From a virus: a DNA stretch of 64,000 nt. How positions within the stretch are numbered: the stretch's first letter is position 1; each line of letters opens with the position of its first letter. The notes under the pieces were generated by a model. The model saw nothing but the letters and a program-made list of their open reading frames with translations, made no database searches and was not told the DNA's origin. The stretch lies in IMG/VR virus record IMGVR_UViG_3300025693_000002; one strand, 5' to 3'. Below are positions 3,938 to 63,570 of the stretch, piece by piece. Both the position numbers and the translations under genes were made by a program.

Positions 3938-3953
3938 AACTAACCAGTTAGTG
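3938..3953. promoter_or_regulatory. ACTAAC/GTTAGT palindrome motif
   Basis: AACTAAC-CA-GTTAGTG, 55-70 nt upstream of the lysis cassette. Followed by AT-rich TAATGAT on the sense strand. Confidence 0.5.
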
Positions 3954-4119
3954 ATATTGCCTAGCGAGAATTTCCCCTGATTCGATTGATCTGCTTCGAC
4001 GGGTTCAAAATTGATACGCAGGGACGCGAGATATCGCGCTGGTGCAACGCTCGCTTGTTTTCGCTACCCGAATCAATGTGAAAGCGAAAAGAGCAGCAGC
4101 GAGCGTTTAAGCGGCTGGC

Positions 4120-5064
4120 TTAGACGTAGCCGTTCACCGTCCAATCAACGATTCGCTCAGCGATGGCGGCGGGGTTTCTCACCGCCTGGTTCAAGAAAAC
4201 CCTCAGCTGGTCTCCGTCCCCGAATGTACTCAGCTGCACCTTGACGATCTGGTGTTTTGCGAAAAACTCGATCCGGCGCTTGAACGTGTAGTCTACATCG
4301 CCCAGAGGGAATGACCCGACGAAGGCGGTGCCCATCTTGTCATTGATGCCATGCTTCATCAGAACTCGGGTGAAGTTCTCGTAACTGCAATCCTGACGGT
4401 AACGACCATCTTCTCCGAGCGACCCTATTGCGTACTGCGTGTAGTGACCAACACTGTCAAAATAGCCTTCCGGGACTCTCGCTGTGATGACGGACGGATT
4501 GTTTACCGTTCGACCAACCGCTGTCGCGAGCAGTTCTTGAACCTTCATTCCGACATGCTTTGCTCTTGCTTGAACCAAACCTTTGGGCAGGTCGAAACTG
4601 ATTTCTCGCGCAAGCCCCTGGATGCCGTTAAACGGTTTCAGGTTCGACAAGTCCATCGGACCGGCCGGTCTGATTCTCGGGTAGGGCGTGTTCGTCTTGA
4701 AAGTTGGCGTCTTGCCGTGCTTTAGCAAATCCATTACCGCGTGGCGAATCTGAATCATCGACCAACCATCGATCAGATCGTGTCGAGTGAAAAGCTCAAA
4801 CCCATCCTCAGCCTGCACCGCTTTTACGCAGGTAGGGGCGGAAACGTGCTGCTCTGCCCTGCCCTGACCTGTATGTACGCGGTCAGCCAGGACGATCTCC
4901 CCGTTTTCGATCCTTCCGCGCATCAGAGGGGCGTGATGACTGACCTCTTGGACTGCATCGACGAACTCTGCCCAGCTCACCGGAAACTTGAAGTTCAAAC
5001 TGGTGCCGAACGTCATGTCGGCGCCTTTGACTGAAAACGCCTTTTGTATCGGGTGTAACTTCAT
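4120..5064 (-). CDS. HxxxDG-motif acyltransferase-like protein (condensation / WS-DGAT / CAT superfamily-like)
   Basis: TRHDLIDGWS motif about 95 aa from the N-terminus in a soluble 314-aa protein. ATGA overlap with the upstream desaturase. ORF-track start 5112 trimmed to ATG 5064. Confidence 0.5.
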   Translation of the reverse strand: MKLHPIQKAFSVKGADMTFGTSLNFKFPVSWAEFVDAVQEVSHHAPLMRGRIENGEIVLADRVHTGQGRAEQHVSAPTCVKAVQAEDGFELFTRHDLIDGWSMIQIRHAVMDLLKHGKTPTFKTNTPYPRIRPAGPMDLSNLKPFNGIQGLAREISFDLPKGLVQARAKHVGMKVQELLATAVGRTVNNPSVITARVPEGYFDSVGHYTQYAIGSLGEDGRYRQDCSYENFTRVLMKHGINDKMGTAFVGSFPLGDVDYTFKRRIEFFAKHQIVKVQLSTFGDGDQLRVFLNQAVRNPAAIAERIVDWTVNGYV

Positions 5065-5819
5065 CGCTTGATTAGCCTTACGAACCAGGAAGCCGGGTCG
5101 AACTCCCACCACTGATGCGCGAAGTTCCAGCCATTCGGCTTTTTATGGTGATTGTTGTGATAACCCTCGCCACCGAAAAGAACGCCAAGCAGCCAGACGT
5201 TGCGCGATTTGTCGCCAACATCGTAGGTCTGATAGCCGAATTTAGGGTTGTGAGGAATGATGACCAGAATGTACTTGCGCAACAGCTGCATCACAGAGAC
5301 TGGGATTGCCCACAGGTAGATCAGCGCCTCTGGCGATATCGCCAGCAGAGTTAGCGCAGTCAGAATTGGGTAGGCGATATACAGCTCATGCACCCGCTTC
5401 ATAGTTGGCGTGAGAAAGAACCGCTTCTTGGCGCTGACAGTCAGCTTAACGCCAGCCAATTTTGTCGCTGGAAACACCACGTCTTTGTAATGGGTGTGCG
5501 GGTCTTGATCGGTGTCAGAGTGAAGGTGATGCTGCAGGTGAATGGCTGCGAACGCCCCTGGATGACCAGACAACGAAGCGCAGCCTGCAAACAGCATGAC
5601 TTCTTCCCAGAACCGATTGGTCTGGAAGGACTTATGGCAGAAGTAGCGATGCCAGCCTACTGTCAGGCCGACGATCCAGTAGAACTGGAAGGCGAGGAAC
5701 CCACCGACGATCCATCCGATGCTCGGCGGGAACAAGAACGCCCCCACCAAGCCGACCAGTGCTGCCGTTTGAATCATCCGCGAGTTGCGAAAGTGAGACG
5801 CTTCAAATGGCTTCTTCAT
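5061..5819 (-). CDS. membrane fatty-acid desaturase (Delta9 / stearoyl-CoA desaturase family), copy 2
   Basis: His boxes HRYFCH, HLQHHLHSDTDQDPH and GEGYHNNHH, with hydrophobic segments between them. ATGA overlaps on both sides. Start trimmed to ATG 5819. Confidence 0.85.
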   Translation of the reverse strand: MKKPFEASHFRNSRMIQTAALVGLVGAFLFPPSIGWIVGGFLAFQFYWIVGLTVGWHRYFCHKSFQTNRFWEEVMLFAGCASLSGHPGAFAAIHLQHHLHSDTDQDPHTHYKDVVFPATKLAGVKLTVSAKKRFFLTPTMKRVHELYIAYPILTALTLLAISPEALIYLWAIPVSVMQLLRKYILVIIPHNPKFGYQTYDVGDKSRNVWLLGVLFGGEGYHNNHHKKPNGWNFAHQWWEFDPASWFVRLIKR

Positions 5820-6604
5820 TGGCGAATCGCCCGGATGAACCACCACGTCGGGTCGATCTCCCACCAACGCTCACCCATCTTGGCTCTGAACGGGTAGGCA
5901 TGATGGTTGTTATGCCACCCTTCCCCGCCCGAGATCAGCGAAGCGAACCACCAGTTGTTACTCGTATCCGGGATTTCATGGTTGCGATAGCCAAGTTTTC
6001 GCAGATGCCCCGTCCACAAGATGAACCGCAAAGTGATCTGGCTTAGTCCCGCGGGGACTAAGTAGAACCAGAAAAGCGCTGCAAGCGGGTTAATTGCAAA
6101 AAGAACGCCGATTGAAACTACAACAACCGCGTGCGCAATCACGAAGCCCCAGTACCAACGCAGCGTGATTCGGTGCAGAGAGTCTTTGGTCGCAACACGC
6201 AGGAACTTGGCCGTTACCCTGGTCGTATGATCAATCGCAGAGCCACCCCCGATAGCGAATCGGGCGTAAGGGTCGTCTGGCTTATCTGATCGCAGGTGGT
6301 GTCGAACATGCGCCTCTGCCCAGATGCAAGGAGGTCCAACTAGGCTGACCATGCACAAGTGCGCCATCACCCATTGCCAGAATCGATTGCACTTGAATGC
6401 ACCGTGCGAGAAGTAACGGTGGGCGCCGGCGCTGATTCCGACGATGTTGAACACCTGCCAGATCACAAGGGCGTGAATCCAGTAGGCGCCTGCCCAGTAC
6501 AGATGTGGGGCAAAAAACATGAGACTTACCCCGATCAAGGCGCAGGCCATGACCAGGGAGTTAGCCGCGACCATCGTCGGGTTGGTTGCTTTCAGTAGGG
6601 CCAT
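5816..6604 (-). CDS. membrane fatty-acid desaturase (Delta9 / stearoyl-CoA desaturase family), copy 1
   Basis: His boxes HRYFSH, HVRHHLRSDKPDDP and GEGWHNNHH. Multiple TM helices. Confidence 0.85.
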   Translation of the reverse strand: MALLKATNPTMVAANSLVMACALIGVSLMFFAPHLYWAGAYWIHALVIWQVFNIVGISAGAHRYFSHGAFKCNRFWQWVMAHLCMVSLVGPPCIWAEAHVRHHLRSDKPDDPYARFAIGGGSAIDHTTRVTAKFLRVATKDSLHRITLRWYWGFVIAHAVVVVSIGVLFAINPLAALFWFYLVPAGLSQITLRFILWTGHLRKLGYRNHEIPDTSNNWWFASLISGGEGWHNNHHAYPFRAKMGERWWEIDPTWWFIRAIRQ

Positions 6605-6606
6605 TG

Positions 6607-9827: not shown

Positions 9828-12517
9828 GCTATTACCTCTTTGAATTGGCCTTGGATGAAGGTCCGACCTTCACTAATTGAGACCTTGTTCGGGCCTGTAC
9901 GCTGATACTCGATGGCGATTTCCTCGGGGGTGAGGGCGCGGTTGAAGATTTTGAGGTTGGCCATATCCCCGAAAAAGGGGGAAGCTCCCCCAGCGTAACG
10001 TCCGCCAATAGTCATGTGGGGGTAAGTGGGGCTACCCACTTGTAACCCGCCGGATTCTAGGGATAGGTACGCTTCTGTACCGTCTATATAAACCCGCCGA
10101 CTGGATGAAGCATGTACATACGCGACCATGTGCCAAGTCCCAGTCTGCAAAGTACGGCTGGTAACTGTTCGCCAGGCCCAGGGCGCAGATGCGTACTTAA
10201 CCATTGAGGTAAGCCCGCTGTTGTTGATGGCTATCTCAAAAGTGTTCTCGATAGTCAGCAAGTTCTGATCTGAGGAGGAACTGGCCGGCAAGGGTTTTAC
10301 CCAAAACGTAAATGTAGCCTCGGGAAACTGCCATGTACCTCCGCTTAGCGGAGCAGAGGTTACCCGGATGAATTGCCCATCCCCACTAAAACCAAACGCA
10401 CCCTTACCATCAAACCCACCAGCAACCGGCACAGCTCCATTCGCTACGCCGTGGTGCCCATTACCGGAGTAGTCATCCGCATTGGCAGTCAACGGGTAGT
10501 AAGCCACCAAACCATCTGTGATGCCGACTTCGGAGTATGCCCCCGAAGCCACTGTAGAAATAACTTGCCCAGGCATGGCCCCTGCTTTAGCTCTGAATAA
10601 CGCCTCATTGCGAGAGTCGAAACCAGCCAACAACTCAGCAATAGAAGGCTCAGTGCCATCGCAAATATCCATGCGCGGGTAGCACCACTGCTGGCGTGTG
10701 TTCACGTCCGTGGAGTAGTACAGATAGCTCCTGTGTCTTGCAGCAGTCGTCCCCTCAGCGAACACGCAGTCGCCCCCTGTGTTACCAAGAACATTCGCTA
10801 TCCGGCCTGCTGCAACTGTGTAAACTCCAGAGTCCGGATGCACTGCGCCCGCGCCGCTGCCTATGGGCCAAATATGCCCAACCACCAAAATCCACTCGGA
10901 ATCAAGCCCGCCGCGGTAATCAAAGTACGGGTTTCCGTTAGTCGCCCCGTTTGACCGGTTTAGGACGGCTGGCGACCCATAACAGCCAAAGTAGAACGTA
11001 CCATTCCCCGTGACCGTTCTCCGCACCCATGTTGAAAGGCGGTAAAACTTGGTTGGATCGACAGGAAACCAGTCACTATTCCACCCACCATCCGGCCCGC
11101 TCACTGCATCCGGTCTTGCCTCCCAGACGACAGTAGGCTTACCCCAAGGATCAGTGTCTATAACGCGGTAGTCCTCCCCCGCGCTACCAATTTTGCGAAA
11201 CATACCAACATCACCAATCTGCCCGTCTTCCCATTGGGTGTAATCCAACAAGAGCGATTGCTTAATGCCTGTGTCGTTGATCATGGCAGCGTAAAAGTTG
11301 CCTTGGTCGTCAATGGACCCACGGCAGTGGTACAGGTTTTTTATATCGGCAGCTGAGAGTTCGCCGGCATAAAGCGATACTTCACCAACAACGCCAGCCC
11401 AATAGCCACCCGCCCAGTCCCCGATTCTGTTAATCGGGTTAACGGTAAGATCAAGGGATGTCGCTACAGTTGAAAGGAAGTTTCCGTCAACATAAAAACT
11501 TGCATTACCGTTGCCGTGTATCACCGTTACATAAAGATGAGCCTTGCCGTCATCAGGAGAGATATACCCTGATTCCCTGAAAGACCCATCAAAAAGACCA
11601 AATACATTTGACCCACTGCTGAATATCGCCGGGTGAATGTTCGCGCTACACCCTAAAACCGTTCTCCAGTTTGCAGCGGCTATCGCGTCATCACGCTTAT
11701 ACCAGAAGGCAAGCGTTGCTTTTGGTGCGGAGAACGGCTCAATATCCATCCGCTTGCCGGCAGAGCTGAACACGGCACAGTTGCGTCCATCTACGGTCGT
11801 AAAGCCAACATCGCCAACTGGAGTGCCTGAGATATACCGGGCCGCATCATAAAGGTCATTGTTGAATTTGTGGTTAACGGCCAAACCCTTCGCCAAATCC
11901 CTCACTTCATGCTCAGAGAGGGCGTGGTCGTAGACGCGAACGTCGTCAACAATGGCAGCCGGAATATAATACGCAGTATTATAACCAGTTGACCATTTAA
12001 ACAGTTGCAGCTTGTCCGGTACGCACTTCATTGCGTAAGTAATTTCAAATTCTTTAATACCATCAACCCAAAGACTCAGGTTATTATTCGATGCGTCATA
12101 ACGGACAATCAGGTGCGCCCACCTGTCCTTTATATTCGATGTTCCATAATAGGAATGGTATGTCCTACTTGTGCCGGTTCCGGTATTGCAGCTGATTCTA
12201 TAGTCGGTTGCTGAAATATACCGGACAGTTATACCTGCTCCTGTATTTGTGGCATGGTTGTGATTTGTTACAAGCCCATTCGCGGACGCCATTGCATCAG
12301 TGACGTATGCCCAACATGCCATAGTGAAGCTTGACGAAAGGTAGATGTCTTCGATCGTTCCAAAATAGTCTGATCCTGTATTGAGTGCGAGTCTCTTATA
12401 AGCTCCACCCAGTTTACCAACTTCCGGCACCAACTGTCCGCTATTGTTAAAATAGGTTAGCTTAGGTCCAATAATATTTGTCAAATCTTCCAGCCTGTAA
12501 TGTGCAATCAAAGCCAT
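9824..12517 (-). CDS. LamG / concanavalin-A-like lectin-domain tail protein
   Basis: Two LamG-type segments: N-terminal ALIAHYRLEDL... and C-terminal LVAYYPLTANADDYSGNGHHG...LKIFNRALTPEEI. Start trimmed to ATG 12517 (AGGAG 8 nt upstream). Confidence 0.7.
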   Translation of the reverse strand: MALIAHYRLEDLTNIIGPKLTYFNNSGQLVPEVGKLGGAYKRLALNTGSDYFGTIEDIYLSSSFTMACWAYVTDAMASANGLVTNHNHATNTGAGITVRYISATDYRISCNTGTGTSRTYHSYYGTSNIKDRWAHLIVRYDASNNNLSLWVDGIKEFEITYAMKCVPDKLQLFKWSTGYNTAYYIPAAIVDDVRVYDHALSEHEVRDLAKGLAVNHKFNNDLYDAARYISGTPVGDVGFTTVDGRNCAVFSSAGKRMDIEPFSAPKATLAFWYKRDDAIAAANWRTVLGCSANIHPAIFSSGSNVFGLFDGSFRESGYISPDDGKAHLYVTVIHGNGNASFYVDGNFLSTVATSLDLTVNPINRIGDWAGGYWAGVVGEVSLYAGELSAADIKNLYHCRGSIDDQGNFYAAMINDTGIKQSLLLDYTQWEDGQIGDVGMFRKIGSAGEDYRVIDTDPWGKPTVVWEARPDAVSGPDGGWNSDWFPVDPTKFYRLSTWVRRTVTGNGTFYFGCYGSPAVLNRSNGATNGNPYFDYRGGLDSEWILVVGHIWPIGSGAGAVHPDSGVYTVAAGRIANVLGNTGGDCVFAEGTTAARHRSYLYYSTDVNTRQQWCYPRMDICDGTEPSIAELLAGFDSRNEALFRAKAGAMPGQVISTVASGAYSEVGITDGLVAYYPLTANADDYSGNGHHGVANGAVPVAGGFDGKGAFGFSGDGQFIRVTSAPLSGGTWQFPEATFTFWVKPLPASSSSDQNLLTIENTFEIAINNSGLTSMVKYASAPWAWRTVTSRTLQTGTWHMVAYVHASSSRRVYIDGTEAYLSLESGGLQVGSPTYPHMTIGGRYAGGASPFFGDMANLKIFNRALTPEEIAIEYQRTGPNKVSISEGRTFIQGQFKEVIA

Positions 12518-16759: not shown

Positions 16760-16779
16760 ACTAACTAACGGGTTAGTGA
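16760..16779. promoter_or_regulatory. ACTAAC/GTTAGT palindrome motif
   Basis: ACTAAC-GG-GTTAGTGA. On the sense strand it is followed by TATAAT. Lies 40-55 nt upstream of the long fibre gene. Confidence 0.55.
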
Positions 16780-25260: not shown

Positions 25261-25280
25261 CTAACTAACGAGATAGTTAT
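25261..25280. promoter_or_regulatory. TAACTAAC-N4-TAGTTA palindrome motif
   Basis: CTAACTAACGAGATAGTTAT between the M-like and L-like genes. Confidence 0.45.
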
Positions 25281-29815: not shown

Positions 29816-29837
29816 TATCTAAGTAGTTAGTGAGGTG

Positions 29838-31560: not shown

Positions 31561-31582
31561 ACTAACTAACGGAATAGTTAGG
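31561..31582. promoter_or_regulatory. TAACTAAC-N4-TAGTTA palindrome motif
   Basis: ACTAACTAACGGAATAGTTAGG, overlapping the stop of ORF 31562..32272. Confidence 0.45.
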
Positions 31583-33576: not shown

Positions 33577-33595
33577 CACTAACCGCTTAGTGAGG
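33577..33595. promoter_or_regulatory. ACTAAC/TTAGTG palindrome motif
   Basis: CACTAA-CCGC-TTAGTGAGG between the capsid stop and its terminator. Confidence 0.45.
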
Positions 33596-34508: not shown

Positions 34509-34527
34509 CACTAACTCCTTAGTTAGT
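34509..34527. promoter_or_regulatory. palindrome motif enclosing the capsid SD
   Basis: Sense strand ACTAACT-AAGG-AGTTAGT-GAAAT-ATG: the SD AAGGAG lies in the loop and 3-prime arm. Confidence 0.5.
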
Positions 34528-35459: not shown

Positions 35460-37120
35460 TAGTCTTTACTCTCCTGGTCTGTCTCTCGACCTTTGGTTTT
35501 GCCTGTCTCTCGGCTAAGGGTTGCGGTCTTCTTTTCAGCAGCCTGACTGCGATTGCGTTTGGCTTCTTCGAGAACCCGCTTGGACTCGTTGGTGCCTGGC
35601 TCGGTATCGTCAGCGTTCTCTTGCGACTCTTCCGACCAGTCCTTGAGTTGCTTGCGCATTTTCTCGATCAGCTCTGAACCCAAATCTGGGAACAGCTTCT
35701 CGACTACTCGACCCATCTGCTCTTCCATCAACATCGCCGGCACGCCCATCAGGCGCAGCTTCATGGCAATATCGAGTTCGTCGTAGAGGGAGCGCACGTC
35801 GAAGTTGTCCTCTACCGGGTAGGACACCAACTCGCTCTCTGGCTCGTCGATTTCCGCCCAGGCACAAACAACCTTGACGATTCGGTTTTCGACAATCTCC
35901 AAAGACTCTGCTTTTGATGCCAGCAGAGCGACGACGCGCTCAAAGTCCTTGCTTTTGGCAACGCCCGAACTGTTGTCGATGCCCTTGGAGTTGTCTTGCT
36001 TGGTTCGCTCGCCGGCCAAGCCGACAGAGTGATAAATCTCGTTGATCAGCTGCTGGATGGCGCTGATGATCAGCGTGGCTTGGCGCGGGTCTGGACTGAG
36101 GTAAGCCGGGGCAATGCCGGACTCGCCGTCGTACAGGAACACTCGCTTGGTGCCCATTTCCAGCAGCTTGTTGTACGCATCGTCGCCCGGGAGGACGTTC
36201 TGAGCCGGCATCGCCAGCTGGGAGAACGTCTGATCCTGAATGATCGCGTCCAGGTTCGATGCATAGTTGGCGACCGCACGGTCGAGGTAAGCGGTATCTG
36301 CGATCATTGCGGGGCAATCCCACTGGTCGCTCGCAGACGAGTTGTTCGCGGGAATCACCGGAACCAGGCCGAGGTCGTGGCGACCCTGGCTGTCCAGAAC
36401 CCACTGACCGCCGCCTTTCATGCGGTTGTTCTTCTCAAAGCCGAACAGGAACCACTCTTCTCGCGTCCACAGACGGAACCGGGAGTACAGGTCGCCTGTT
36501 GAGTCGAGCGGGTCTTTGTCGTCGCGGCAATGCTCCTCGATCATGACCCACAGCAGCTCGCCGTATTCGTCAACGGCCCAGTCGCGAACCTGTTGAGGCG
36601 GCACGAGGTAGGCGTAAAGATCGACACCTACGTTGTCCTGCTTGGACTCGTCGCCTTCAACGCTGGTAACGCGGTTGTCGATGACGATCCAGGGACGGCC
36701 AAAGATCGATGACTTGAGGGAAACGGTGCGCATGAACTCGTTGATATCCATGCCGTTAGAGTTGACCTTCGCCCAGAAGTCTTTGACTTCCTGCGGAGCG
36801 TCCTCAGTCTTGCGGCGGATTTCAGCGCGGAAAAGGTACTTGTTGATCAGGTCAACAACTTCGCGAGTGTGATTGAAACGGTATGCTCGCTTTACGCGGT
36901 CGCTATACTCGCCATCACCCTCTTTGATGTAGCGGAAGATGTTGCTCTTGAACCAAGCACGGCCCCCTCGATAGCTTTGATCCAGGAAGTTCCAGTGCGG
37001 AACCAGCTCGTCGTAGAGCGGGTGCTTGCGTTCGACGATTTTGGTCACAGCATTGCTTTTCACGAGCGCACCTAATCTTGAAGAGCCTATATAATAACTA
37101 ACCGCATAGTTAGTTGGCAA
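35459..37120 (-). CDS. portal protein
   Basis: ~550 aa directly after terL. The ORF-track start is TTG 37120 and runs through promoter-like motif 37095..37115, so the real start may be GTG 37063. Confidence 0.7.
   Translation of the reverse strand: MPTNYAVSYYIGSSRLGALVKSNAVTKIVERKHPLYDELVPHWNFLDQSYRGGRAWFKSNIFRYIKEGDGEYSDRVKRAYRFNHTREVVDLINKYLFRAEIRRKTEDAPQEVKDFWAKVNSNGMDINEFMRTVSLKSSIFGRPWIVIDNRVTSVEGDESKQDNVGVDLYAYLVPPQQVRDWAVDEYGELLWVMIEEHCRDDKDPLDSTGDLYSRFRLWTREEWFLFGFEKNNRMKGGGQWVLDSQGRHDLGLVPVIPANNSSASDQWDCPAMIADTAYLDRAVANYASNLDAIIQDQTFSQLAMPAQNVLPGDDAYNKLLEMGTKRVFLYDGESGIAPAYLSPDPRQATLIISAIQQLINEIYHSVGLAGERTKQDNSKGIDNSSGVAKSKDFERVVALLASKAESLEIVENRIVKVVCAWAEIDEPESELVSYPVEDNFDVRSLYDELDIAMKLRLMGVPAMLMEEQMGRVVEKLFPDLGSELIEKMRKQLKDWSEESQENADDTEPGTNESKRVLEEAKRNRSQAAEKKTATLSRETGKTKGRETDQESKD
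37095..37115. promoter_or_regulatory. TAACTAAC-N4-TAGTTAGTT palindrome motif
   Basis: On the sense strand it is followed by TTATTATATAGG. Lies between terL and the portal gene. Confidence 0.5.
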
Positions 37121-39200: not shown

Positions 39201-39220
39201 ATAACTAAACCGTTAGTGAT
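39201..39220. promoter_or_regulatory. palindrome motif (late leader, proximal)
   Basis: ATAACTAAACCGTTAGTGAT, about 110 nt upstream of terS. Confidence 0.5.
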
Positions 39221-39322: not shown

Positions 39323-39339
39323 TACTAACTTGTTAGTTA
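39323..39339. promoter_or_regulatory. palindrome motif (late leader, distal)
   Basis: Sense strand TAACTAAC-AA-GTTAGTA followed directly by TTATAAT. Confidence 0.55.
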
Positions 39340-39596: not shown

Positions 39597-39935
39597 TCAG
39601 TCCTGAGCTACCAGCTCGACAATATCGTCGTCGCCAATCAGCTCGTCGTAGGTTGCCGGCGCCTTGCGAGGGGCTAGAATCCGGGTGGCGAGTGGTGTCG
39701 GGGCGATCACCTGCTTCATTCGACCGTCGCGCAGCTCCTTGCCTTCCCGTGTAATCCACCCCTGATTGACCAGGATGCGGATCGAGCACATCAGCGATTC
39801 CCTGGATGTTTCGTAGGACAGGCGGCCCAGAATCTGCTGGTAGTCGCACCAGCCGACCCGGTTGCCCTTCACGTCCAGGTTTCCAGTCATGACCACGCGC
39901 ATCAGTTCGCGCTGTTTTGTTGTCAGTGGCTTCAT
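39597..39935 (-). CDS. winged-helix DNA-binding protein (candidate regulator)
   Basis: 112 aa. CDYQQILGRLSYETSRESLMCSIRILVNQGWITREGKE resembles a MarR/wHTH recognition helix plus wing. Confidence 0.45.
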   Translation of the reverse strand: MKPLTTKQRELMRVVMTGNLDVKGNRVGWCDYQQILGRLSYETSRESLMCSIRILVNQGWITREGKELRDGRMKQVIAPTPLATRILAPRKAPATYDELIGDDDIVELVAQD

Positions 39936-42598: not shown

Positions 42599-42619
42599 AA
42601 CTCACCGCTTAGTTAGTTG
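42599..42619. promoter_or_regulatory. degenerate palindrome motif
   Basis: AACTCACCGCTTAGTTAGTTG at the end of the ParB-like gene. Confidence 0.3.
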
Positions 42620-43352: not shown

Positions 43353-43370
43353 TAACTAACCACATAGTTA
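43353..43370. promoter_or_regulatory. TAACTAAC-N4-TAGTTA palindrome motif in the divergent intergenic region
   Basis: TAACTAACCACATAGTTA between the ParB-like gene (minus) and the helicase gene (plus). Confidence 0.5.
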
Positions 43371-45199: not shown

Positions 45200-45215
45200 C
45201 AGTAATCAGTTAGTG
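45200..45215. promoter_or_regulatory. degenerate palindrome motif
   Basis: AGTAATCAGTTAGTGA, 15-30 nt upstream of ORF 45230. Confidence 0.3.
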
Positions 45216-45229: not shown

Positions 45230-45766
45230 ATGAAAAAGTTCTATGTGGGTTGCGGCTCCACCAATACCCCTGCCCCTATTCTCAAGCTGATGACTCTGTT
45301 GGCTCAGGTGATGGCTCAACGCGGTGTGACTCTTTACACCTCCGAGCAGCCAGGAGCTGACAAAGCGTTTGTGCGAGGGTCGCAAGGCTTGTTCTTCACG
45401 TTCATTCCCGACAACGATGCAGGCGAATCAATGTGCGGGATCACCTCCGATCTGACCCCGGGCGGTGCTGCCGTGACCCTCGCACGGAGATTGAATCCGA
45501 CTTTTGTCGCAATGACGCTCCAAGAAAAACGCTGGGAGATTGCTGCGAACAACATCCTGCTTGGTTTGAGCGGCGTTGGTCAGGCAAAACTGCTGATTAC
45601 CTGGACGCCGGATGGCGCTACGCGGCCGAGCGAGTTCACTGAGAACACCGGCAACGTGGCTCGATATTTGCGAATTGCGCACAAATACGGAATCCCGGTT
45701 CTAAATCTTGCGCGCAGAGAGCATCGAGACAAAGTGAAGCCTTGGCTGGCCGATCTTTCTCACTAA
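45230..45766 (+). CDS. SLOG/DprA-like Rossmann-fold protein
   Basis: GCGSTNTP...LAQVMAQRGVTLYTSEQPGADKAF resembles the GSR..P / G.GAD.AF pattern of DprA/SLOG families. Confidence 0.4.
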   Translation: MKKFYVGCGSTNTPAPILKLMTLLAQVMAQRGVTLYTSEQPGADKAFVRGSQGLFFTFIPDNDAGESMCGITSDLTPGGAAVTLARRLNPTFVAMTLQEKRWEIAANNILLGLSGVGQAKLLITWTPDGATRPSEFTENTGNVARYLRIAHKYGIPVLNLARREHRDKVKPWLADLSH

Positions 45767-45777
45767 TCACTTAGTAA
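45761..45777. promoter_or_regulatory. palindrome motif
   Basis: CACTAA-TCAC-TTAGTAA, overlapping the stop of ORF 45230..45766. Confidence 0.35.
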
Positions 45778-47706: not shown

Positions 47707-48140
47707 ACTCTTACTCCCGCACGTTTCAGACGTTCCAACAGAACTGTTGCGTATCCATTCATAGCCATGATCTGAGTGCTCAGCAGATGCTGATCAGTCG
47801 GGTCAACTTTGGAGAAGCCGTCGGATTCGACGAAGCGATTGAGCTTGGTCAGTTTGTCCGTCAGCTGAACGTATTCACCAATCACGCGCTGAACGTGAGC
47901 TGGCAGACCTTCTACGTCGCCAATGGGCAGGTATGCGGCGTCGAACTGAGCTTTCGGACTCCAGCTGATATACCCGGCGTGACGCTCGTCGTTGGGCTGA
48001 CCACCGTCGGTATATTCAACCAGGTAGCCCTCGTCTTCACCCTGCTCATTTACAGGCAGCTGCCAACCGCGATAGTCGTTGTACTGACCGCGAGTCATCG
48101 GGTAGGCGATAACCGTTTTGGTGCCGATGTAGTGAGTCAT
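47703..48140 (-). CDS. conserved phage hypothetical protein
   Basis: 145 aa from MTHYIGTKTVIAYPMTRGQYNDYRGW. The ORF-track N-terminus was trimmed (1-nt overlap with the upstream stop). Confidence 0.5.
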   Translation of the reverse strand: MTHYIGTKTVIAYPMTRGQYNDYRGWQLPVNEQGEDEGYLVEYTDGGQPNDERHAGYISWSPKAQFDAAYLPIGDVEGLPAHVQRVIGEYVQLTDKLTKLNRFVESDGFSKVDPTDQHLLSTQIMAMNGYATVLLERLKRAGVRV

Positions 48141-48382
48141 CAGAAGCCCTCCGGTTGAGCGACAGCGCGCACCCAGCAGGAGATACCCTTCTGCAGATCG
48201 GTTCGGCCTTCGTTGAGCCAACGCATATCGACTTGGTGACCGCCCGTTTGCAAGTTGGTCACAGCCAGGTAGTCGTACATTTCGCCCAGCTTTTCGCCCA
48301 GCTCTTTGATCTTGTTGATGCAGTCGATTTCGTCCTGCGTCAGATCGCGGTAGTTCTTGATCAGCTTGTGCTGATTATCCAT
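48140..48382 (-). CDS. hypothetical protein
   Basis: 80-aa ORF, the first gene of a leftward unit. Confidence 0.5.
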   Translation of the reverse strand: MDNQHKLIKNYRDLTQDEIDCINKIKELGEKLGEMYDYLAVTNLQTGGHQVDMRWLNEGRTDLQKGISCWVRAVAQPEGF

Positions 48383-48395: not shown

Positions 48396-48420
48396 TTAAC
48401 TAAGTGGTGAGTTATTATAT
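48396..48420. promoter_or_regulatory. palindrome motif plus TTATTATAT
   Basis: TTAACTAAGTGGTGAGTTATTATAT, 34 nt upstream of the glutaredoxin-like gene. Almost identical to the portal copy. Confidence 0.5.
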
Positions 48421-50451: not shown

Positions 50452-50624
50452 TGTTGATAGACCCGGAACCCGGTATTCCCGTAGTCCCCAGGCTGTGTAA
50501 GGGAAGAGGCACTAATCCCCTCCTCCCGGCTGTGTAAGGGCGTCTTTCCCCGGTACGGCTTTTAGGATTCTGTAGGGTGAGACTATAAAAATTAGTTCTA
50601 ATACTTTGACACTTAGAACAACTT

Positions 50625-50691
50625 GCGAAAGTTTGAAAGTTTCAAACTTCAAACTTCAAACTTCAAACTTTCGCAACTTTCAAACTTCAAC
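50625..50691. repeat. heptamer tandem repeat (TTCAAAC x4 plus 2 degenerate) inside a 13-bp inverted repeat
   Basis: GCGAAAGTTTGAA (50625..50637) pairs with TTCAAACTTTCGC (50662..50674). Perfect heptamers span 50641..50668. Confidence 0.85.
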
Positions 50692-50878
50692 TTAATATCA
50701 AGTCATTAATACACTTATTATAAAGCGCGTTATTAATAACTTTGAGCGCGCGCATCTTTACAACTTCAAAAACAATGCGCGCAACTTCATTGCTAACTTT
50801 AATAACAGTAACTTTGTTTACTGTTATTAAATACTCAACTTCACTTACTTGTTTAAAGTTTATATGTGCAACTTGCAT
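50687..50878 (-). CDS. hypothetical small protein in the AT-rich island
   Basis: 63 aa, AAGGTG 9 nt upstream of the ATG. Very AT-rich, so it could be spurious. Confidence 0.35.
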   Translation of the reverse strand: MQVAHINFKQVSEVEYLITVNKVTVIKVSNEVARIVFEVVKMRALKVINNALYNKCINDLILS

Positions 50879-50900: not shown

Positions 50901-50941
50901 AAAGAAAAAAGCGCTTAGTTATTAACTAAGCGCTTAGTTAA
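50901..50941 (-). terminator. intrinsic terminator with an alternative overlapping palindrome
   Basis: Minus strand AAGCGCTTAGTTA-A-TAACTAAGCGCTT-TTTTCTTTTC (50935..50901). The 20-bp perfect palindrome TTAACTAAGCGCTTAGTTAA (50922..50941) shares the central arm. Confidence 0.7.
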
Positions 50942-50943
50942 TC

Positions 50944-51495: not shown

Positions 51496-51539
51496 TTTTC
51501 GTTCTCACTTTGTTTAGCTGATTAGTTTTAGTTTTTACT

Positions 51540-51800
51540 GCTTTGCTGCTCTCACGACGTAGCATTATTTCAGCGCGTCTCGCGAGGTCAGACTTGATCA
51601 AGTTTTTAAAGAGCGTGTCGTTGTTCGACGTGACTATAGTCTCAAATGCTGCGATTCATTGCAAGCGTTATTTTGAAATTTTTTTAGGTTTTTTCGTCTT
51701 TTTTTCTGATCAAAAAATGATCAAAAATAATTCAAAAAAATTTCATTTCAGCGCTTGCGTTCTTCATTGCAAGCGCTATAATGAACACATAAACAGCAGA
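51540..51800. other. extremely AT-rich non-coding segment (candidate DNA unwinding element)
   Basis: Runs of A/T (ttttgaaatttttttaggttttttcgtctttttttctgatcaaaaaatgatcaaaaataattcaaaaaaatttc) directly abut the GC-rich iteron block. Confidence 0.4.
51755..51782 (+). promoter_or_regulatory. sigma70-like promoter firing into the GC-rich iteron block
   Basis: TTGCGT-16-TATAAT on the plus strand. Embedded in the inverted repeat AGCGCTTGC/GCAAGCGCT. Confidence 0.4.
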
Positions 51801-51994
51801 CAGCGAGACACTGAAATGAACGACACTAGCTAGCACGAACCTCGCGACGCGCGACGTGACATCGCGCGACTCCCGCCGAGACAGTCAATCCGGCGGCGAG
51901 ACCCTGGAACCAGCCCGGACGCTGCCGCCCCGACGCGAAAGACGGCGCCCCTGGCACCCCGACGGTGCGCAAGCGCGGCAGAGTGGTTTTTTGG

Positions 51995-52137
51995 CGGTGC
52001 GGAACCGGGTTCCATCTGGCGGAACCCAGGCCCGAAAAACCGCCGCGGCGCGCAGTTCCGCCTGGCGGAAAAACCGTCCATCTGGCGGAACCCGCCTGGC
52101 AAAACCCTTGACCGCCTGGCGGAACGGGTTTCCGCCT
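51995..52137. repeat. iteron-like CTGGCGGAA repeats, including the 15-bp palindrome TTCCGCCTGGCGGAA
   Basis: Copies at 52016, 52062, 52082 and 52117, with degenerate copies at 51997 and 52096. Inverted half-sites at 52056 and 52130. The perfect palindrome spans 52056..52070. Confidence 0.8.
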
Positions 52138-52283
52138 ATAGGGCCGGCGGCCCGATTGGGCCACGGCCCCCTGCCGCGGCGCGGGTGAGCGGAAAACCGG
52201 GCGCCAGTCCTATATGGCGCGCCATAGGCGGTCCCAGTCCTAAATCGGCCCCTATGGCGATCCCAAACTTCCCACGGCTGATA

Positions 52284-52317
52284 TAAACGGCAAAACAGCG
52301 AACACATGGCTCGCTGT
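52284..52317 (-). terminator. intrinsic terminator after ORF 52333..52569
   Basis: Minus strand ACAGCGA-GCCATGTGT-TCGCTGT-TTTGCCGTTT. Confidence 0.6.
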
Positions 52318-52332
52318 CTTGAGTGCGGCGGA

Positions 52333-53051: not shown

Positions 53052-53336
53052 TCACCCCCGAATCAGTGCAAAGCGTTCTTTGGTACGCGACACCGGCTCT
53101 TGCTTGAAGGTGTCAGCCTGGTAAGTGCCGTTTTCGACTTCTTTGAGGTAGTTTTCCCACTCTTCTTGCTTGAGGTTGTGAACCTTGTGGTGAACCCCCA
53201 GCTGTATCTTCTCCCGCACATTGCACGACGACAAACTGGCGTAGCGCACGACTTCGCGGCCGGACTCTTCAAATTGCTTGGTAGCAGTAGCCAGCAGATC
53301 ACGCAGCTCGGCTTTATTCATGGTGCAGATTCCCAT
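53052..53336 (-). CDS. hypothetical protein
   Basis: 94 aa, with the conserved leader (hairpin plus ATCAGCTAAAC) upstream. Confidence 0.5.
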   Translation of the reverse strand: MGICTMNKAELRDLLATATKQFEESGREVVRYASLSSCNVREKIQLGVHHKVHNLKQEEWENYLKEVENGTYQADTFKQEPVSRTKERFALIRG

Positions 53337-53496
53337 AATTCAGTTCCCATTTCTGTTTAGCTGATTGATGCCGCAGCGTCTAATGCGCTGCTGTGTGTAG
53401 TGTATCAAGTCAGTAACGGCATAGTTAGCTGGGATAGTGGCGTTTCACAATTGCCGTGGTCACAGATCAGCCGCGGCACATGACTGAGCAAGACAA

Positions 53497-53513
53497 ACCC
53501 GGTTATCCCGGGT
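53497..53513 (-). terminator. conserved hairpin ACCCGG-TTATC-CCGGGT after ORF 53526..53864
   Basis: The same element recurs at 54000..54014. The U-rich tail is weak. Confidence 0.35.
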
Positions 53514-53525
53514 CTGCTCTCTGGT

Positions 53526-54370: not shown

Positions 54371-54741
54371 GATGTTCTCTCGGTTGTGTGCGCCGTCTCG
54401 TGCAGCGCATCTATGTATAGTGTGACTGAGCAAACACGGCATGTATCACGCGGGGCGTGGGAGCCGCTTAAATGCCGGAAACGTGATAGCCGTGGGATTA
54501 CCGGGTTATGGCGGAGCCACGGTTGAACCACGGCTAAGCCACACTCCGGGATTGCCACGGCAGGGTAATGGCTCAGCAGATCACGGTTGCGCCACGGTGG
54601 AGCCGCGGGACGTGATGGGAGACTGCGGGAACGTGGCAAATGGTTCTGCCTCAACCGCTCTGCTCGGGAAGGGCGCCATATAATAAAAGGCCGCCATAGG
54701 AATTTTCGAGCCACGGCTCTGCCAAGGTACACACGAGAACC

Positions 54742-54776
54742 AAAAAAAGACCCAATCAAGCAAGCTCAATTGGGTC
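54742..54776 (-). terminator. intrinsic terminator
   Basis: Minus strand GACCCAAT-(12 nt)-ATTGGGTC-TTTTTTT. Confidence 0.75.
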
Positions 54777-55045
54777 AAAGCCACTGTGAGAGTGACATCA
54801 GCTAAGTGACGGGTATTAACGCCCCGCGTCGGCGTGAATCCGGGTGTAACTGGTAAGCCTGGGATAAAACCTGGTTAAACAGTTTACGGGTTTTTCCTGG
54901 TTTCGTTTTTTTACTTTAAGTGCTTGCTAAGGCTCTTAGTCTAACCAATCTAACCTTCTCTACTCTATATCGGCTTTGTCCTATTCCCCGCTCTACTCTC
55001 CTTGACTTACCTAGTTCAGCGCTGTCTGTCTGCGCTCTCGATGAA
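54742..55045 (-). ncRNA. candidate ~300-nt non-coding transcript
   Basis: Bounded by a TATAGT -10 at 55055..55050, the early-leader-type hairpin at 55017..55037, and the intrinsic terminator at 54742..54776. The longest ORFs inside are 10 codons or fewer. Confidence 0.4.
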
Positions 55046-55049
55046 ATGA

Positions 55050-55055
55050 ACTATA
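55050..55055 (-). promoter_or_regulatory. -10 element TATAGT of the candidate ncRNA
   Basis: Same spacing to the leader hairpin as in the neighbouring early units. Confidence 0.3.
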
Positions 55056-55209
55056 CAGACTGACTACTGGTGAGTCTCGTAGAGGGTATGGGGAACAGTT
55101 GATTGCCGATGGCAGTAGTCTGGAGCCGCGGGAGAGGAACAATCCTATACTAGCCACGGCTAAACCTTGGCATAGGCACACACCACGGCAGGTAGGTAAT
55201 CAGGCGTCA

Positions 55210-55239
55210 CCCGTGGCCGGAATTTGCCGGACTGGACTC
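55210..55239. repeat. 30-bp repeat (copy C)
   Basis: CCCGTGGCCGGAATTTGCCGGACTGGACTC. Confidence 0.85.
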
Positions 55240-55384
55240 TTTGGAAAAGCCTGATATCGGAAGACCGTGGGTGTCTATAACCGTAAGAGAGAATGGGAGT
55301 GAGTGTGGGATGGTGTGTGGAATGGGAGCGTGGGTGTGTAAGAGAATTTCTGGGAGCGGTGAACGCACGATGATTTGAATACAA

Positions 55385-55575
55385 CCCCACCACAAATCCT
55401 TACTACGTTTCCTTACTCTCTTGCTTACCCCTTACCTACGTTCCCTAACCCACCACAAATCCTTACCCTCTTCTCTTACACGTTATCTACTCTCCCTATA
55501 CGCTACCCTTACCCTCTCCCTATGCCTTACCTTCTTCTCTCCTCTACCTATTCTTCACTCCCATACGTTCTATCC
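55385..55575. repeat. strand-asymmetric polypyrimidine tract with repeated CCTTAC and an 18-mer duplicated 63 bp apart
   Basis: CCCACCACAAATCCTTAC occurs at 55386..55403 and 55449..55466. CCTTAC occurs about 7 times. The left flank (55260..55365) is the G/T-rich partial complement (GTAAGAGA). Confidence 0.75.
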
Positions 55576-57500: not shown

Positions 57501-57521
57501 CTACTAACTAACTTATTAGTA
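57501..57521. promoter_or_regulatory. palindrome motif
   Basis: Sense strand TACTAATAAGTTAGTTAGTAG followed by ATATATAAAAC, about 50 nt upstream of ATG 57451. Confidence 0.45.
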
Positions 57522-58603: not shown

Positions 58604-58604
58604 T

Positions 58605-58988: not shown

Positions 58989-59446
58989 GACAGCACCACC
59001 AGAAGAGGCTGCGCAGCGTCAAAGCGAGCATGATCGAAGCCTTCTTCCCAGGGTAAATGCCCGTTGGCGTCTGACCACACCCACTGCACATACTGAGGCT
59101 TGTCCCAGCCAGCGTTCGCAGCGTAGACCTCGCCCTGAACCGCATACTTCGCAGCCTTTTCACGATCAGCGTTGATCACAGCCATCGGCAGGTTGAACCA
59201 GTCGTTGAGCGTACACGGCCCGGCGTCACGAACCTTCTGATTGACGATTTCGTCGTAGTATTGGTTGATCAGCGGCATGATCATCTGCGGCGGAAGCGAG
59301 AACACAATGACTTCCGGCAAGCCATGCTTGGCAAACCCAACGGTGTACACGAAACCCGGGCTGTCTTTGTCGCCACCGATCCCGAATACGCTCAGACCAC
59401 ATCGCTCGACGTTGGCGCGGATGACTTCTTGAGGGTTGTACGGCAT
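58985..59446 (-). CDS. DUF4262-like protein
   Basis: GFVYTVGFAKHGLPEVIVFSLP pattern. Confidence 0.45.
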   Translation of the reverse strand: MPYNPQEVIRANVERCGLSVFGIGGDKDSPGFVYTVGFAKHGLPEVIVFSLPPQMIMPLINQYYDEIVNQKVRDAGPCTLNDWFNLPMAVINADREKAAKYAVQGEVYAANAGWDKPQYVQWVWSDANGHLPWEEGFDHARFDAAQPLLVVLS

Positions 59447-59465
59447 GTGATTCTCTCTGTTGTGA

Positions 59466-59485
59466 TTAACTATGCGCTTAGTTTA
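59466..59485. promoter_or_regulatory. palindrome motif
   Basis: TTAACTATGCGCTTAGTTTA, 20-40 nt upstream of ORF 58985..59446. Confidence 0.4.
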
Positions 59486-59512
59486 CACAACAGAGAGTGG
59501 GGGTGGAGCTGG

Positions 59513-60278: not shown

Positions 60279-60788
60279 TCAGTCAAGAATGGTCAGGATG
60301 CTTTGAATTTCAGGGTGCTTGAACTGCTGGGTTTGAATGAACTGAAGCAGCTCCTCGTCAGTCGCTGGACGGCAGCCGTCAGTCGCCGAAGCGTCAATGA
60401 CGAAGTTCAACCGACCAAGCAGCCCGTCACGAACGGCGTGGAAGTGATCGTGAGCCAACTGATTCAGCCTACTATCCACGTCGTAGCTATTCTGACAGAG
60501 ACCGGACAGCGCCATCAGCCAGGCAGCGTAGGAGATAGCCTCAACGGTCGTTGTAACATGGCTTTGATTGCCGGCAACAATGCTTACTCGATCGGTCTCA
60601 GGGAAGACCATCGCAACACCGCCATTGGGGTATTTGCGATATTCCCAGGCACCGCCTTGATAATGGTCGGTGATCTTGCCAAGCATGTTGAAGGTTATGG
60701 TCTCAAGCCATACTGCAGACTCGCCGAATATCTTGCCGATCGGATTCTCTTGCTCCGGGATTACCTCGTAAGGCTTCTTGTCCTGCAT
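60279..60788 (-). CDS. KlcA/ArdB-like antirestriction protein
   Basis: The family pattern Y.GG.W.Y....NGG..M.P......I...GN......S.EA...A.L.AL..L......YH..R.......HPE......ILD is matched by HYQGGAWEYRKYPNGGVAMVFPETDRVSIVAGNQS...VEAISYAAWLMALSGL...HFHAVRDGL...HPEIQSILTILD. Confidence 0.6.
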   Translation of the reverse strand: MQDKKPYEVIPEQENPIGKIFGESAVWLETITFNMLGKITDHYQGGAWEYRKYPNGGVAMVFPETDRVSIVAGNQSHVTTTVEAISYAAWLMALSGLCQNSYDVDSRLNQLAHDHFHAVRDGLLGRLNFVIDASATDGCRPATDEELLQFIQTQQFKHPEIQSILTILD

Positions 60789-62630: not shown

Positions 62631-62650
62631 ATAACTAAGCGGTTAGTATA
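62631..62650. promoter_or_regulatory. palindrome motif flanked by TATA on both sides
   Basis: ATAACTAAGCGGTTAGTATA, 40-60 nt upstream of ORF 62248..62589. Confidence 0.45.
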
Positions 62651-62671: not shown

Positions 62672-62839
62672 TCAAGCCCATTTCCCATAGTTTGACCTGG
62701 CTTCGATTTCCTGGAAGGTCTTTACCGCGTCTTCAACTTCCTGCTTTTCTGCGGCCACCGCTTTAAGCAACCCAGCCAGTTCGGTAACAACAAAAGCCTT
62801 CAAGCGCTCTTGAAACGAAGGCAGCTCTTGCTCACTCAC
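62672..62839 (-). CDS. small hypothetical protein (55 aa)
   Basis: Hand translation from GTG 62839 (AAAGGAG 7 nt upstream) gives VSEQELPSFQERLKAFVVTELAGLLKAVAAEKQEVEDAVKTFQEIEARSNYGKWA. Below the ORF-track cutoff. Confidence 0.4.
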   Translation of the reverse strand: MSEQELPSFQERLKAFVVTELAGLLKAVAAEKQEVEDAVKTFQEIEARSNYGKWA

Positions 62840-62907
62840 GACAATCTCCTTTGGATCAAGCTCTCAGAACGCGCGGCATTGCGCGTTCTCTTTCAACGTG
62901 TGCGCTG

Positions 62908-63450
62908 TCAGCGCATCATCTGCAAAATGCTATCAGCGCGCGAATTACGCGCTTGCCGCTGCGCCCCCTCTGCTCGTTTCAGATACGCATCGATGTTGTC
63001 CAGCCAGGACAGATCAAGTCGATACTTCATCCGACTGCGAATTGCCCAAACTTCCAGGCTGCGCGCTGCGTATTCGTCAGCCAGCTCGATGGGCCAGCTG
63101 TTCACTTTCGCCAAGTGCTTGAGCGCCGGCATGAGGTAGCCCTGCTGCATAGCCAAGCCAATGTGCTTCACACGATGGCAAGACGGGCAGAGGGAAATCA
63201 GACCGTCGAGTCGCTGCACCCGGTTCTCGTCGTCGTAGTGCCAAATCTCATGACACTCAACGGGGTGTTTCTTCCCTACCCCGCCGCAAATCTCACAGCG
63301 GTTGCCAGCCAGCGCGTAGCAGGCTTTCTTGGTCGTCGTCCACTGAGCAGTCGTGAATCGGCTGCGCAGGTTGTCGTACCACTGCGATTCCGGCACCAAC
63401 TCGATAGTCAGCTTTGGCGGTTTGTATGGGTGAAACGGGTTGTGAGTCAT
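62908..63450 (-). CDS. HNH endonuclease
   Basis: CEICGG...HPVECHEIWHYDDE...CPSCHRVKH (HNH motif with Cys4 zinc site). Confidence 0.8.
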   Translation of the reverse strand: MTHNPFHPYKPPKLTIELVPESQWYDNLRSRFTTAQWTTTKKACYALAGNRCEICGGVGKKHPVECHEIWHYDDENRVQRLDGLISLCPSCHRVKHIGLAMQQGYLMPALKHLAKVNSWPIELADEYAARSLEVWAIRSRMKYRLDLSWLDNIDAYLKRAEGAQRQARNSRADSILQMMR

Positions 63451-63520
63451 GCGAAGGCTCCTGTGTAGTCAGTTTCGCCAGTTCAGACCTTGCTCCAGCC
63501 ATCTGGACGTGGAGCTTGCA

Positions 63521-63551
63521 GAAACAACAAAGCCTGCACGTCTGTGCAGGC
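63521..63551 (-). terminator. intrinsic terminator after ORF 63571..
   Basis: Minus strand GCCTGCAC-AGAC-GTGCAGGC-TTTGTTGTTTC. Confidence 0.65.
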
Positions 63552-63570
63552 TTAGTAAGTGGTTAGTGTA

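Follow-up and report, generated by a model that had tools for sequence, protein, structure and literature searches.

Many palindromes of ~17 bp, known as CIRs, occur in the Streptomyces phage phiC31, where they are intergenic, often lie beside promoters or terminators, and are bound by the repressor c. The operator of phage P1 is an asymmetric 17-mer (ATTGCTCTAATAAATTT), and its repressor C1 is not known to be a Cro/CI-type helix-turn-helix (HTH) protein. The P1 genome has 22 dispersed C1 operators (PMC8546580), and Cluster A phages such as L5 and Bxb1 have 20 to 30 repressor-binding sites genome-wide, mostly in short intergenic gaps, many of them outside promoters and thought to block elongation (PMC6550527). 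The site consensus and the repressor co-vary within the L5 group and define immunity groups (PMC6550527). Here we describe a short palindrome that recurs between the genes of IMG/VR virus record IMGVR_UViG_3300025693_000002. The window that we analyzed spans 64,000 nucleotides (nt), bases ~1330 to 65329 of the 108,090-bp JGI contig Ga0105357_10000005, and leaves ~43 kb of the contig outside it. We consider it probable, from the sequence and its relatives, that the palindrome provides the operators of one phage-encoded repressor at about 20 places in the window. Dispersed repressor control is known from P1 and L5, but the searchable literature yielded no account of it in this phage family, nor any of lysis-lysogeny control in SSU5-related phage-plasmids or their lytic cousins.

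The proposed system resembles that of P1 in that the element would be a phage-plasmid, with one immunity repressor acting at some 20 or more operators over ~100 kb, on many lytic operons and on its own gene. Unlike in P1, the site is an 18-bp perfect-type palindrome, the candidate repressor belongs to the XRE family, and the structural genes are unrelated; no analogues of P1 Coi or Lxc were identified. As in L5, there are intercistronic sites (nine in the window), and three half-site variants track the helix of the candidate repressor. The L5 stoperators are, however, asymmetric 13-mers with strict orientation to transcription, whereas the sites here are palindromic with slight flank asymmetry (A/C at position 0 versus T at position 15), and a larger share of them lies over recognizable sigma-70-type promoter boxes. 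Phage phiC31 integrates into the chromosome, and its host, phage family, and repressor family differ from those of the plasmid-carried family here. With lambda, the system shares a candidate with a Cro/CI-type HTH fold and two to three operators in the divergent region by the repressor gene, implying autoregulation; lambdoid operators are confined to the immunity region, whereas here the same operator is found at most operon boundaries genome-wide.

We propose that a homodimer of one phage-encoded repressor would bind TAACTAA-N4-TTAGTTA at ~20 places in the window, and probably at 35 to 40 in the whole genome. Because the sites overlap sigma-70-type promoters, or sit in leaders and between cistrons, the lytic genes would remain silent for as long as the phage persists as a plasmid prophage. 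The repressor is most likely a Cro/CI-type (XRE) HTH protein of ~176 to 182 amino acids (aa) whose gene, in the closest motif-bearing relatives, lies beside parA/parB and divergent from cobT amid many operators, an assignment that we hold with somewhat less confidence than the operators themselves.

A dispersed palindrome and its half-site variants

The core of the element is ACTAA-N4-TTAGT (14 bp), and its full form, TAACTAA-N4-TTAGTTA, is an 18-bp palindrome. The pattern ACTAANNNNTTAGT at no more than one mismatch has 21 matches in the window, compared with a mean of 0.48 and a maximum of 4 in 100 dinucleotide-preserving shuffles. Twenty of the 21 lie outside called open reading frames (ORFs), and the single coding match, at 49224, is probably due to chance. 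Intergenic DNA makes up only about 11% of the window, and the word TAACTAA occurs 16 times in these ~7 kb versus twice in ~57 kb of coding DNA; 17 of the 33 intergenic gaps of at least 30 bp have a site. The palindrome thus has the many, mostly intergenic copies, far above chance, of a dispersed operator. A sequence-only reading of the same stretch had listed 20 positions, almost exclusively between genes; the motif is present at every one of them, the placement holds, and the enrichment over shuffled sequence is likewise real. The two spacing classes that it described are a single class, the N2 and N6 forms being the same 14-bp core in shifted register, an effect of the 4-nt periodicity of its flanks (TAAC-TAAC/TAGT-TAGT). 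We note that a further, weaker operator (AGTAACGGCATAGT, two mismatches) may lie at 53412-53425, in the gap at 53322-53525. An IHF-like consensus (WATCAANNNNTTR) was dropped, the site being symmetric and its variants following phage lineage and not host.

The window DNA is 55% G+C with genes mostly on the minus strand, and its last gene is incomplete and crosses the window end. Its closest relatives in culture, nickie, hairong, ZY21, and phiK7B1, are phages of Pseudomonas syringae of ~112 kb, and nucleotide-level likeness to them is limited to the terminase and portal genes. The large terminase is 80 to 81% identical in protein sequence to those of this nickie clade, 87 to 88% identical to those of the close relatives L004 and L009, and 56 to 59% identical to those of Salmonella phage SSU5, Klebsiella and Escherichia coli phage-plasmids, Rhizobium phage RHEph10, Xanthomonas JGB6, and Stenotrophomonas BUCTxx99. 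Related phages in isolate genomes are whole contigs of 100 to 113 kb, in hosts that include Massilia, Chitinibacter, Yersinia pestis, Kluyvera, Magnetospirillum, Morganella, and Xenorhabdus. The relative in Cupriavidus metallidurans is a closed circular plasmid of 106,308 bp (NZ_CP090528.1) with genes for trfA, MipZ/ParA, and an XRE regulator (WP_224446221.1), and that in a Pseudomonas mendocina isolate (L386) is a 110,248-bp contig (UGUU01000002.1, assembly GCA_900455715.1) carrying XRE-ParA-ParB and ACTAA sites. Elements of the SSU5 type are recognized phage-plasmids (PMC7969092). The motif-bearing relatives are SSU5-related phage-plasmids of about 100 to 113 kb. A census of the pattern in IMG/VR gave mostly single chance matches, and L094, L164, L193, and L142 came up among the matches listed; viral scans with a 183-aa early protein for further relatives brought no useful gain.

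Between 29.8 and 45.2 kb, each of the ten window sites holds its intergenic position in L004 and/or L009, with central bases and flanks that differ from those of the window, and the site at 3939 is conserved in L164. The far more distant contig L094 (terminase 56%) also carries the motif. A logo of 41 sites (window, L004, and L009, oriented by the downstream gene) reads T(A/C)ACTAA-CYRG-TTAGTTA-n-T, with conserved half-sites, a G+C-rich but variable central 4 bp, and no conservation past position +18. The complete nickie genome has no copy of the motif and no other repeated 5-mer palindrome, and in the nickie clade (L005, L007, L008, L010, and L022) the motif is absent except for a repeat at the capsid ribosome-binding site. 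Distant relatives, with terminases 57 to 68% identical, have the same architecture but different half-sites: TAAGTCA-N4-TGACTTA in IMG/VR contigs, Massilia, Paraburkholderia, Chitinibacter, Photobacterium, Magnetospirillum, and Cupriavidus, and TAAGTAA-N4-TTACTTA in Acinetobacter and Halomonas. The Cupriavidus plasmid has 35 AGTCA sites round its whole genome, the XRE promoter among them.

Placement at promoters, leaders, and operon boundaries

A sigma-70 promoter scan of the window overall shows no enrichment over shuffles, and the promoter assignments therefore rest on conserved examples and not on the scan alone. Promoter spacers hold the sites at 37097, 43355, and 48399. The core at 37097..37110 fills the 18-nt spacer of the terL-portal promoter, TTGCCA...TATTAT, on the minus strand. 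A single core at 43355..43368 lies in the divergent ParB_N/helicase promoter region, in the spacer in both directions, with -10-like hexamers abutting both sides (TACTAT on the minus strand and TATTGT on the plus strand); it is kept in L004 at 4186 and L009 at 4968, and the layout is the same in AGTCA-type relatives. At 48399..48412 (one mismatch), also in a divergent region, the plus-strand TATTAT of a glutaredoxin gene abuts the core, which is in its spacer, and the minus-strand TATAAT of an Acb2-like gene ends 1 nt before it.

Several sites lie a few nucleotides upstream of a -10 box. The core at 3939..3952 (ACTAACCAGTTAGT) has TG-n-TAAAAT 6 nt further on its sense (minus) strand, with position and flank kept in L164 at 13741. 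The core at 16764..16777, upstream of a 1400-aa tail gene, has TATAAT 4 nt downstream on the minus strand, placing the core centre near -22, and that at 39324..39337 has TATAAT 2 nt downstream (minus strand) and a related site in L004 at 9057. The distance is 11 nt at 31565..31578 (one mismatch), to the minus-strand extended -10 TGgTATAAT, a spacing shared by the sites at 16940 in L004 and 16840 in L009. The core at 39204..39217 stands 2 nt upstream of a consensus -35 box, in TTGACA-18-AACAAT (with TG), before a small-terminase-like gene; the site with its TTGACA box is kept in L004 at 9206 and L009 at 9191.

Other cores begin 0 to 1 nt after a -10 box or overlap it. The core at 25264..25277 (one mismatch) begins 1 nt past the -10 of TTGAAT-18-TAAAAT (minus strand), with an ATG 15 nt on, and that at 57507..57520 follows TG-n-CACAAT (minus strand) directly; both are therefore on the transcription start. 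The minus-strand promoter at 48399 falls in the same group, as does the core at 62634..62647, whose left arm overlaps the -10 of TTGACT-19-TATACT or, alternatively, is abutted by TATATT (minus strand). In the AGTCA relatives these three promoter classes recur, there with consensus TTGACA and TAnnnT boxes that leave no ambiguity about the layout: the palindrome shares one base with the start of a consensus -35 (AGTCAnnnnTGAC[TTGACA]-17-TATTGT), fills the spacer of TTGACA-(3-4 nt + 14)-TAnnAT, or lies ~5 to 10 nt behind TGgTATAGT.

The remaining nine sites are grouped without a promoter signal; each lies at a ribosome-binding site or a stop codon, or immediately ahead of a terminator hairpin. 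The core at 29818..29831 (one mismatch) is between cistrons and followed by a GC-rich hairpin (kept in L004 at 18687 and L009 at 18580), and that at 33578..33591 lies 7 nt past the capsid stop codon, followed by TGtTATAAA and a terminator hairpin (kept in L004 at 14802, L009 at 14795, and L094 at 4513). At 34510..34523 the core (ACTAAGGAGTTAGT, minus strand) surrounds the Shine-Dalgarno (SD) sequence of the capsid gene, with the ATG 5 nt on, and is kept in L004 and L009. The core at 42600..42613 (one mismatch) lies between a ParB_N stop codon and the ATG of a 54-aa ORF (kept in L004 at 4979 and L009 at 5760), that at 45201..45214 (one mismatch) between the helicase terminator and the gene at 45230 (kept in L009 at 3112), and that at 45762..45775 over the stop codon of 45230-45766, with the next ATG 18 nt on. 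The minus-strand element at 50906..50943 comprises one and a half operators, in which a core at 50925-50938 and one more half-site together make up a 12-bp hairpin with a T-run behind it. The core at 59469..59482 (one mismatch), between cistrons, is the loop between the arms of a 12-bp inverted repeat (CTCTCTGTTGTG...CACAACAGAGAG) in the region 59440-59510, and that at 63554..63567 (one mismatch) is immediately followed by a terminator hairpin (63553-63530). The window sites as a whole thus overlap promoters or take leader and intercistronic positions, as the operators of a repressor would.

The sequence-only reading had favored a phage-specific promoter or operator class bound by a dimeric regulator, with the dyad in the place of a -35. 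The promoter version, in which the palindrome is an activator site or -35-replacing element of late promoters comparable to the Lpa-dependent late promoters of P1, which have a -10 box plus an inverted repeat near -22, seems to us quite unlikely. In its favor, strong -10 hexamers (at least 5/6) are enriched on the sense side, at 17 of the 58 sites of window and relatives combined versus 4 of 58 on the opposite strand, perfect TATAAT occurs seven times, and a poor -35 is combined with a core centre near -18 to -25 at 16764, 39324, 3939, and 48399 (plus strand). The right arm does run into such hexamers on the sense side, then, but at a minority of sites and at variable distance: the core-to--10 distance ranges from a 1-nt overlap to 20 nt (most 0 to 13), or the -10 lies upstream of the core, and the lack of information content beyond +16 fits no constant dyad-to-start geometry. 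An activator requires fixed geometry, and a repressor does not. Cores that begin 0 to 1 nt after a -10 or overlap it, and hence lie on the transcription start, are equally at odds with an activator, as are the core upstream of a -35, the lytic relatives that still require late transcription and have no palindrome, and the nine sites at ribosome-binding sites, stop codons, or terminators.

Nor is a properly spaced TTGACA-like -35 generally lacking, as had been claimed: 37097 is in a TTGCCA...TATTAT spacer, 39204 is beside TTGACA, and 25264 follows TTGAAT-18-TAAAAT. Such TTGCCA and TTGACA boxes are properly spaced at conserved promoters, and the palindrome is flanked by -35 boxes close to consensus at both the terL-portal promoter and the one after the capsid gene. 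In an alignment of the terL-portal promoter, every lineage retains the -35 and -10, and the spacer between them holds ACTAA, AGTCA, or, in nickie, nothing. The promoter persists in nickie without the palindrome and therefore does not need it, and since it works without the palindrome, we read the latter as a probable added negative control. Of the earlier proposal, the evidence supports a site on DNA, at or near promoters, for a regulator that is dimeric and encoded by the phage; it does not support a class of promoters with the dyad as -35.

A different recurrent sequence may mark another promoter set. The heptamer TTACACA has nine intergenic copies, eight of them on the gene-sense minus strand (39261, 43372, 45179, 50494, 50531, 55335, 57566, and 62611) and one on the plus strand (59483), and two coding copies; it often lies behind an AT-rich run and may be a -35-like box (cTTACA).

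An RNA-level role had been offered as an alternative, but action as an RNA hairpin, in processing, stability, or the control of translation, is very improbable for the element in general. Folded as RNA, the sites have a mean minimum free energy of -3.1 kcal/mol, with no fold at two of them and values weaker than -2 at several. Half of the sites (10/20) have a single-arm change that breaks a pair, without compensation, and compensated double changes are absent among the two-mismatch sites in intergenic DNA. The conserved stem sequence and free loop are the reverse of what a protein-bound RNA hairpin would show and are the pattern of a dimeric DNA-binding protein. Divergent promoters are served in both orientations (43355 and 48399), and scans of the window gave no tRNA or Rfam match. 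An RNA role draws on several sites that lie directly before terminators and on a real terminator-like hairpin at 50909-50935, which is as the sequence-only reading described it; a terminator scan passes only this one with the motif arms as its stem and also lists a weak stem over 33579-33602.

The capsid gene is the exception. Its site puts the SD in the hairpin loop, again as described earlier, and the inverted repeat (window 34505-34530) survives in motif-less relatives, in nickie (L001) at 12030-12056 and in L005, L008, and L022 at ~13912, with altered arms (TCTAAC-GAAGGA-GTTAGA in nickie). To judge from this conservation, the capsid-SD inverted repeat may have an RNA-level or ribosome-binding role of its own.

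Candidate binding proteins

In the ACTAA-type relatives L312 and L313 and in P. mendocina L386, parA, parB, and a 402-aa gene come after an XRE gene (~176 to 182 aa). Two to three ACTAA operators lie between this cluster and the divergent cobT, and in L386 one of them is 3 nt downstream of the XRE gene's TATACT box. Neither nickie nor its clade has any of these genes. A hidden Markov model search of 75 nonredundant cobS-centred loci, for an XRE gene within 10 kb of cobS, found motif and XRE together in 51, neither in 10, motif only in 6, XRE only in 5 (mostly weak, distant HTH proteins), and 3 borderline. The XRE gene is thus near cobS in 51 of 57 motif-positive loci, and the co-occurrence has a chi-square of ~21.7, calculated by hand and uncorrected for shared ancestry.

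The type of half-site is also tracked by the XRE protein. The start of its recognition helix reads xPN(V/I/M)(I/L)(T/S)M with AGTCA sites, (A/R)N..(S/T)L with AGTAA sites, and (S/A)N(V/M)(L/I)(T/S)M with ACTAA sites, so that each site consensus goes with a distinct helix motif. An AlphaFold model of the P. mendocina protein (predicted local distance difference test [pLDDT] score, 88) has the five-helix Cro/CI-type HTH fold, and its top Foldseek matches are all XRE-type repressors (Stl, ClgR, C.BclI, lambda cI, and HigA; TM scores of 0.6 to 0.77 relative to target). Pfam matches to HTH_3, HTH_26, and HTH_31 are below threshold, and IMG and UniRef label the protein as an XRE family regulator. 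The distant ACTAA-type contig L362 (5160-7375) has another plasmid module, with RepA-like 360-aa and ribbon-helix-helix-like 68-aa proteins, and its XRE gene is co-oriented with cobT; this arrangement points to plasmid modules being swapped while the operator type is retained. We note that ACTAA-type relatives also encode a 197- to 199-aa protein with a Sigma70_r2 domain between cobS and dnaE (L386 5296-5889, L312 11251-11847, and L387 5124-5723), which has no tblastn match in nickie and might serve as a phage sigma factor at promoters of another class.

The second-best candidate binder, after the XRE protein, is a 112-aa winged-helix protein encoded in the window itself at 39597..39935 (minus strand), which the sequence-only reading had named. 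If it were the binder, it would act as a repressor or dual regulator of the morphogenesis genes. MarR dimers bind palindromes, the protein does have a profile match to MarR/PadR-type regulators (E=7e-4 against the PDB), and its gene is just upstream of the 503-bp region with two sites; a single-sequence AlphaFold model is unusable (pLDDT 47). The gene is, however, retained in every motif-less lineage (the nickie clade, enterobacterial loci, L035, and L020), its own promoter has no operators, and its helix fails to separate AGTAA from AGTCA, the AGTAA-type L225 reading as AGTCA type. The XRE gene tracks motif presence and type much better, and we regard the winged-helix protein as an unlikely binder.

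It is extremely improbable that the two ParB_N proteins encoded at 41767-43333 load onto the palindromes as onto a centromere or onto ParB/KorB-type sites. KorB and N15 SopB do bind dispersed palindromes in promoter regions, and the two genes lie beside the sites at 42600 and 43355. Both ParB_N genes are nevertheless kept at 58 to 64% identity in nickie, where the palindrome is absent, and we dropped the idea because the genes persist without the motif: a cognate protein should co-occur with its site, and these do not. An HTH domain is undetectable after the ParB_N domain, and the 20 to 35 sites, mostly over promoter elements, are unlike known centromeres.

Several observations weigh against an XRE repressor as the binder or against repression itself. 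No XRE or ParA homolog is encoded in the window; Pfam searches of 40 window proteins found ParB_N (two proteins), ABC ATPase, TerB, Acb2/Tad1, and ArdA-like domains and no HTH_3-type regulator. Database searches for XRE and ParA homologs returned none from a JGI contig of ~108 kb, though the presumed CobS of this phage (P0035, on a 108,094-bp contig) appears to be in the collection, and the repressor of the window phage may be absent, divergent, or unindexed. The XRE-motif co-occurrence is uncorrected for phylogeny and confounded with temperate versus lytic lifestyle, six motif-positive loci have no XRE gene within 10 kb of cobS, and the fold matches of the XRE protein are weak (E of 4e-3 to 1e-1). 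The winged-helix recognition helix reads ..CSIRIL in ACTAA phages versus ..CSL(A/P/G)IL in the motif-less nickie clade. Many window sites are weak in their -35, and several have a -10 2 to 6 nt downstream, which also fits an activator replacing -35 contacts. We nonetheless favor repression by an XRE protein, and we infer that its gene lies in the remaining 43 kb of the contig.

Accessory features and implications for the phage family

The window has further features apart from the palindrome. Two stretches, 51496-52332 and 54371-55575, have no convincing ORF, tRNA, or Rfam match and are rich in short repeats, including CTGGCGGAAC four times at 51992-52145, GCCACGG-containing 20-mers at 54514-55170, and a 30-mer (CCCGTGGCCGGAATTTG..GGACTGGACTC) at 52734, 52775, and 55210; these stretches might represent iterons, an origin, or a binding array. 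At least four TTTCAAACTTCAA-like units lie at 50619-50770 in a 307-bp noncoding gap, with CCCTTACACAGCC twice nearby (50488-50540). The 503-bp gap before the small-terminase-like gene has a purine-rich tract (GAGAGGGGAGAGAAGGGGGACTATAGGGGGTAGAGAGGGGAGAG, minus strand) and two copies of the palindrome CGCGTATACGCG (39340-39400 and 39518-39590).

Counter-defence and accessory genes are at 48140-48382, 60279-60788, 47703-48140, and 45794-46231. In that order they encode an Acb2/Tad1-like protein implicated against cyclic-oligonucleotide-based antiphage signaling systems (anti-CBASS; E=6e-11), an ArdA-like antirestriction domain (E=3e-5) whose score of 24.7 bits is just under the Pfam cutoff of 25, a crAss001_48-related protein, and TerB. 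Two adjacent fatty-acid desaturase (PF00487) genes at 5061-6604 (identified via L084 5557-7100) lie between the tail-fibre and lysis genes and represent an unusual phage auxiliary function. An Hfq-like protein is encoded beside PhoH in the family, at L084 13048-13377 (just outside the window start) and at 96401-96787 of the Cupriavidus plasmid.

If the window phage, with its full conserved operator set, lacked a cognate repressor gene, it could be a recently "escaped" lytic derivative, a proposal that we find rather doubtful. If it is correct, the phage's promoters would still be open to silencing in trans by any resident phage-plasmid that shares its immunity type, the nickie clade would be an end point with decayed operators, and the AGTCA, AGTAA, and ACTAA sites, paired with one or two residue changes where the XRE recognition helix begins, would trace natural switches in immunity specificity, step by step, through a widespread family.

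Phage-plasmids related to SSU5 are common, as are their lytic cousins, and nickie-like P. syringae phages are considered for the biocontrol of kiwifruit canker. If the palindrome is the operator of an XRE repressor, then one short palindrome and one small XRE protein would constitute the immunity system of a whole family, with hosts including Pseudomonas, Cupriavidus, Massilia, Magnetospirillum, Acinetobacter, Halomonas, and others. The palindrome would mark promoters and operon boundaries for the annotation of these genomes, and the variants would provide a natural series for the study of changes in repressor/operator specificity. The half-site would predict immunity groups, and the presence or absence of the operators and the XRE gene would be a sequence test for distinguishing temperate from lytic members.

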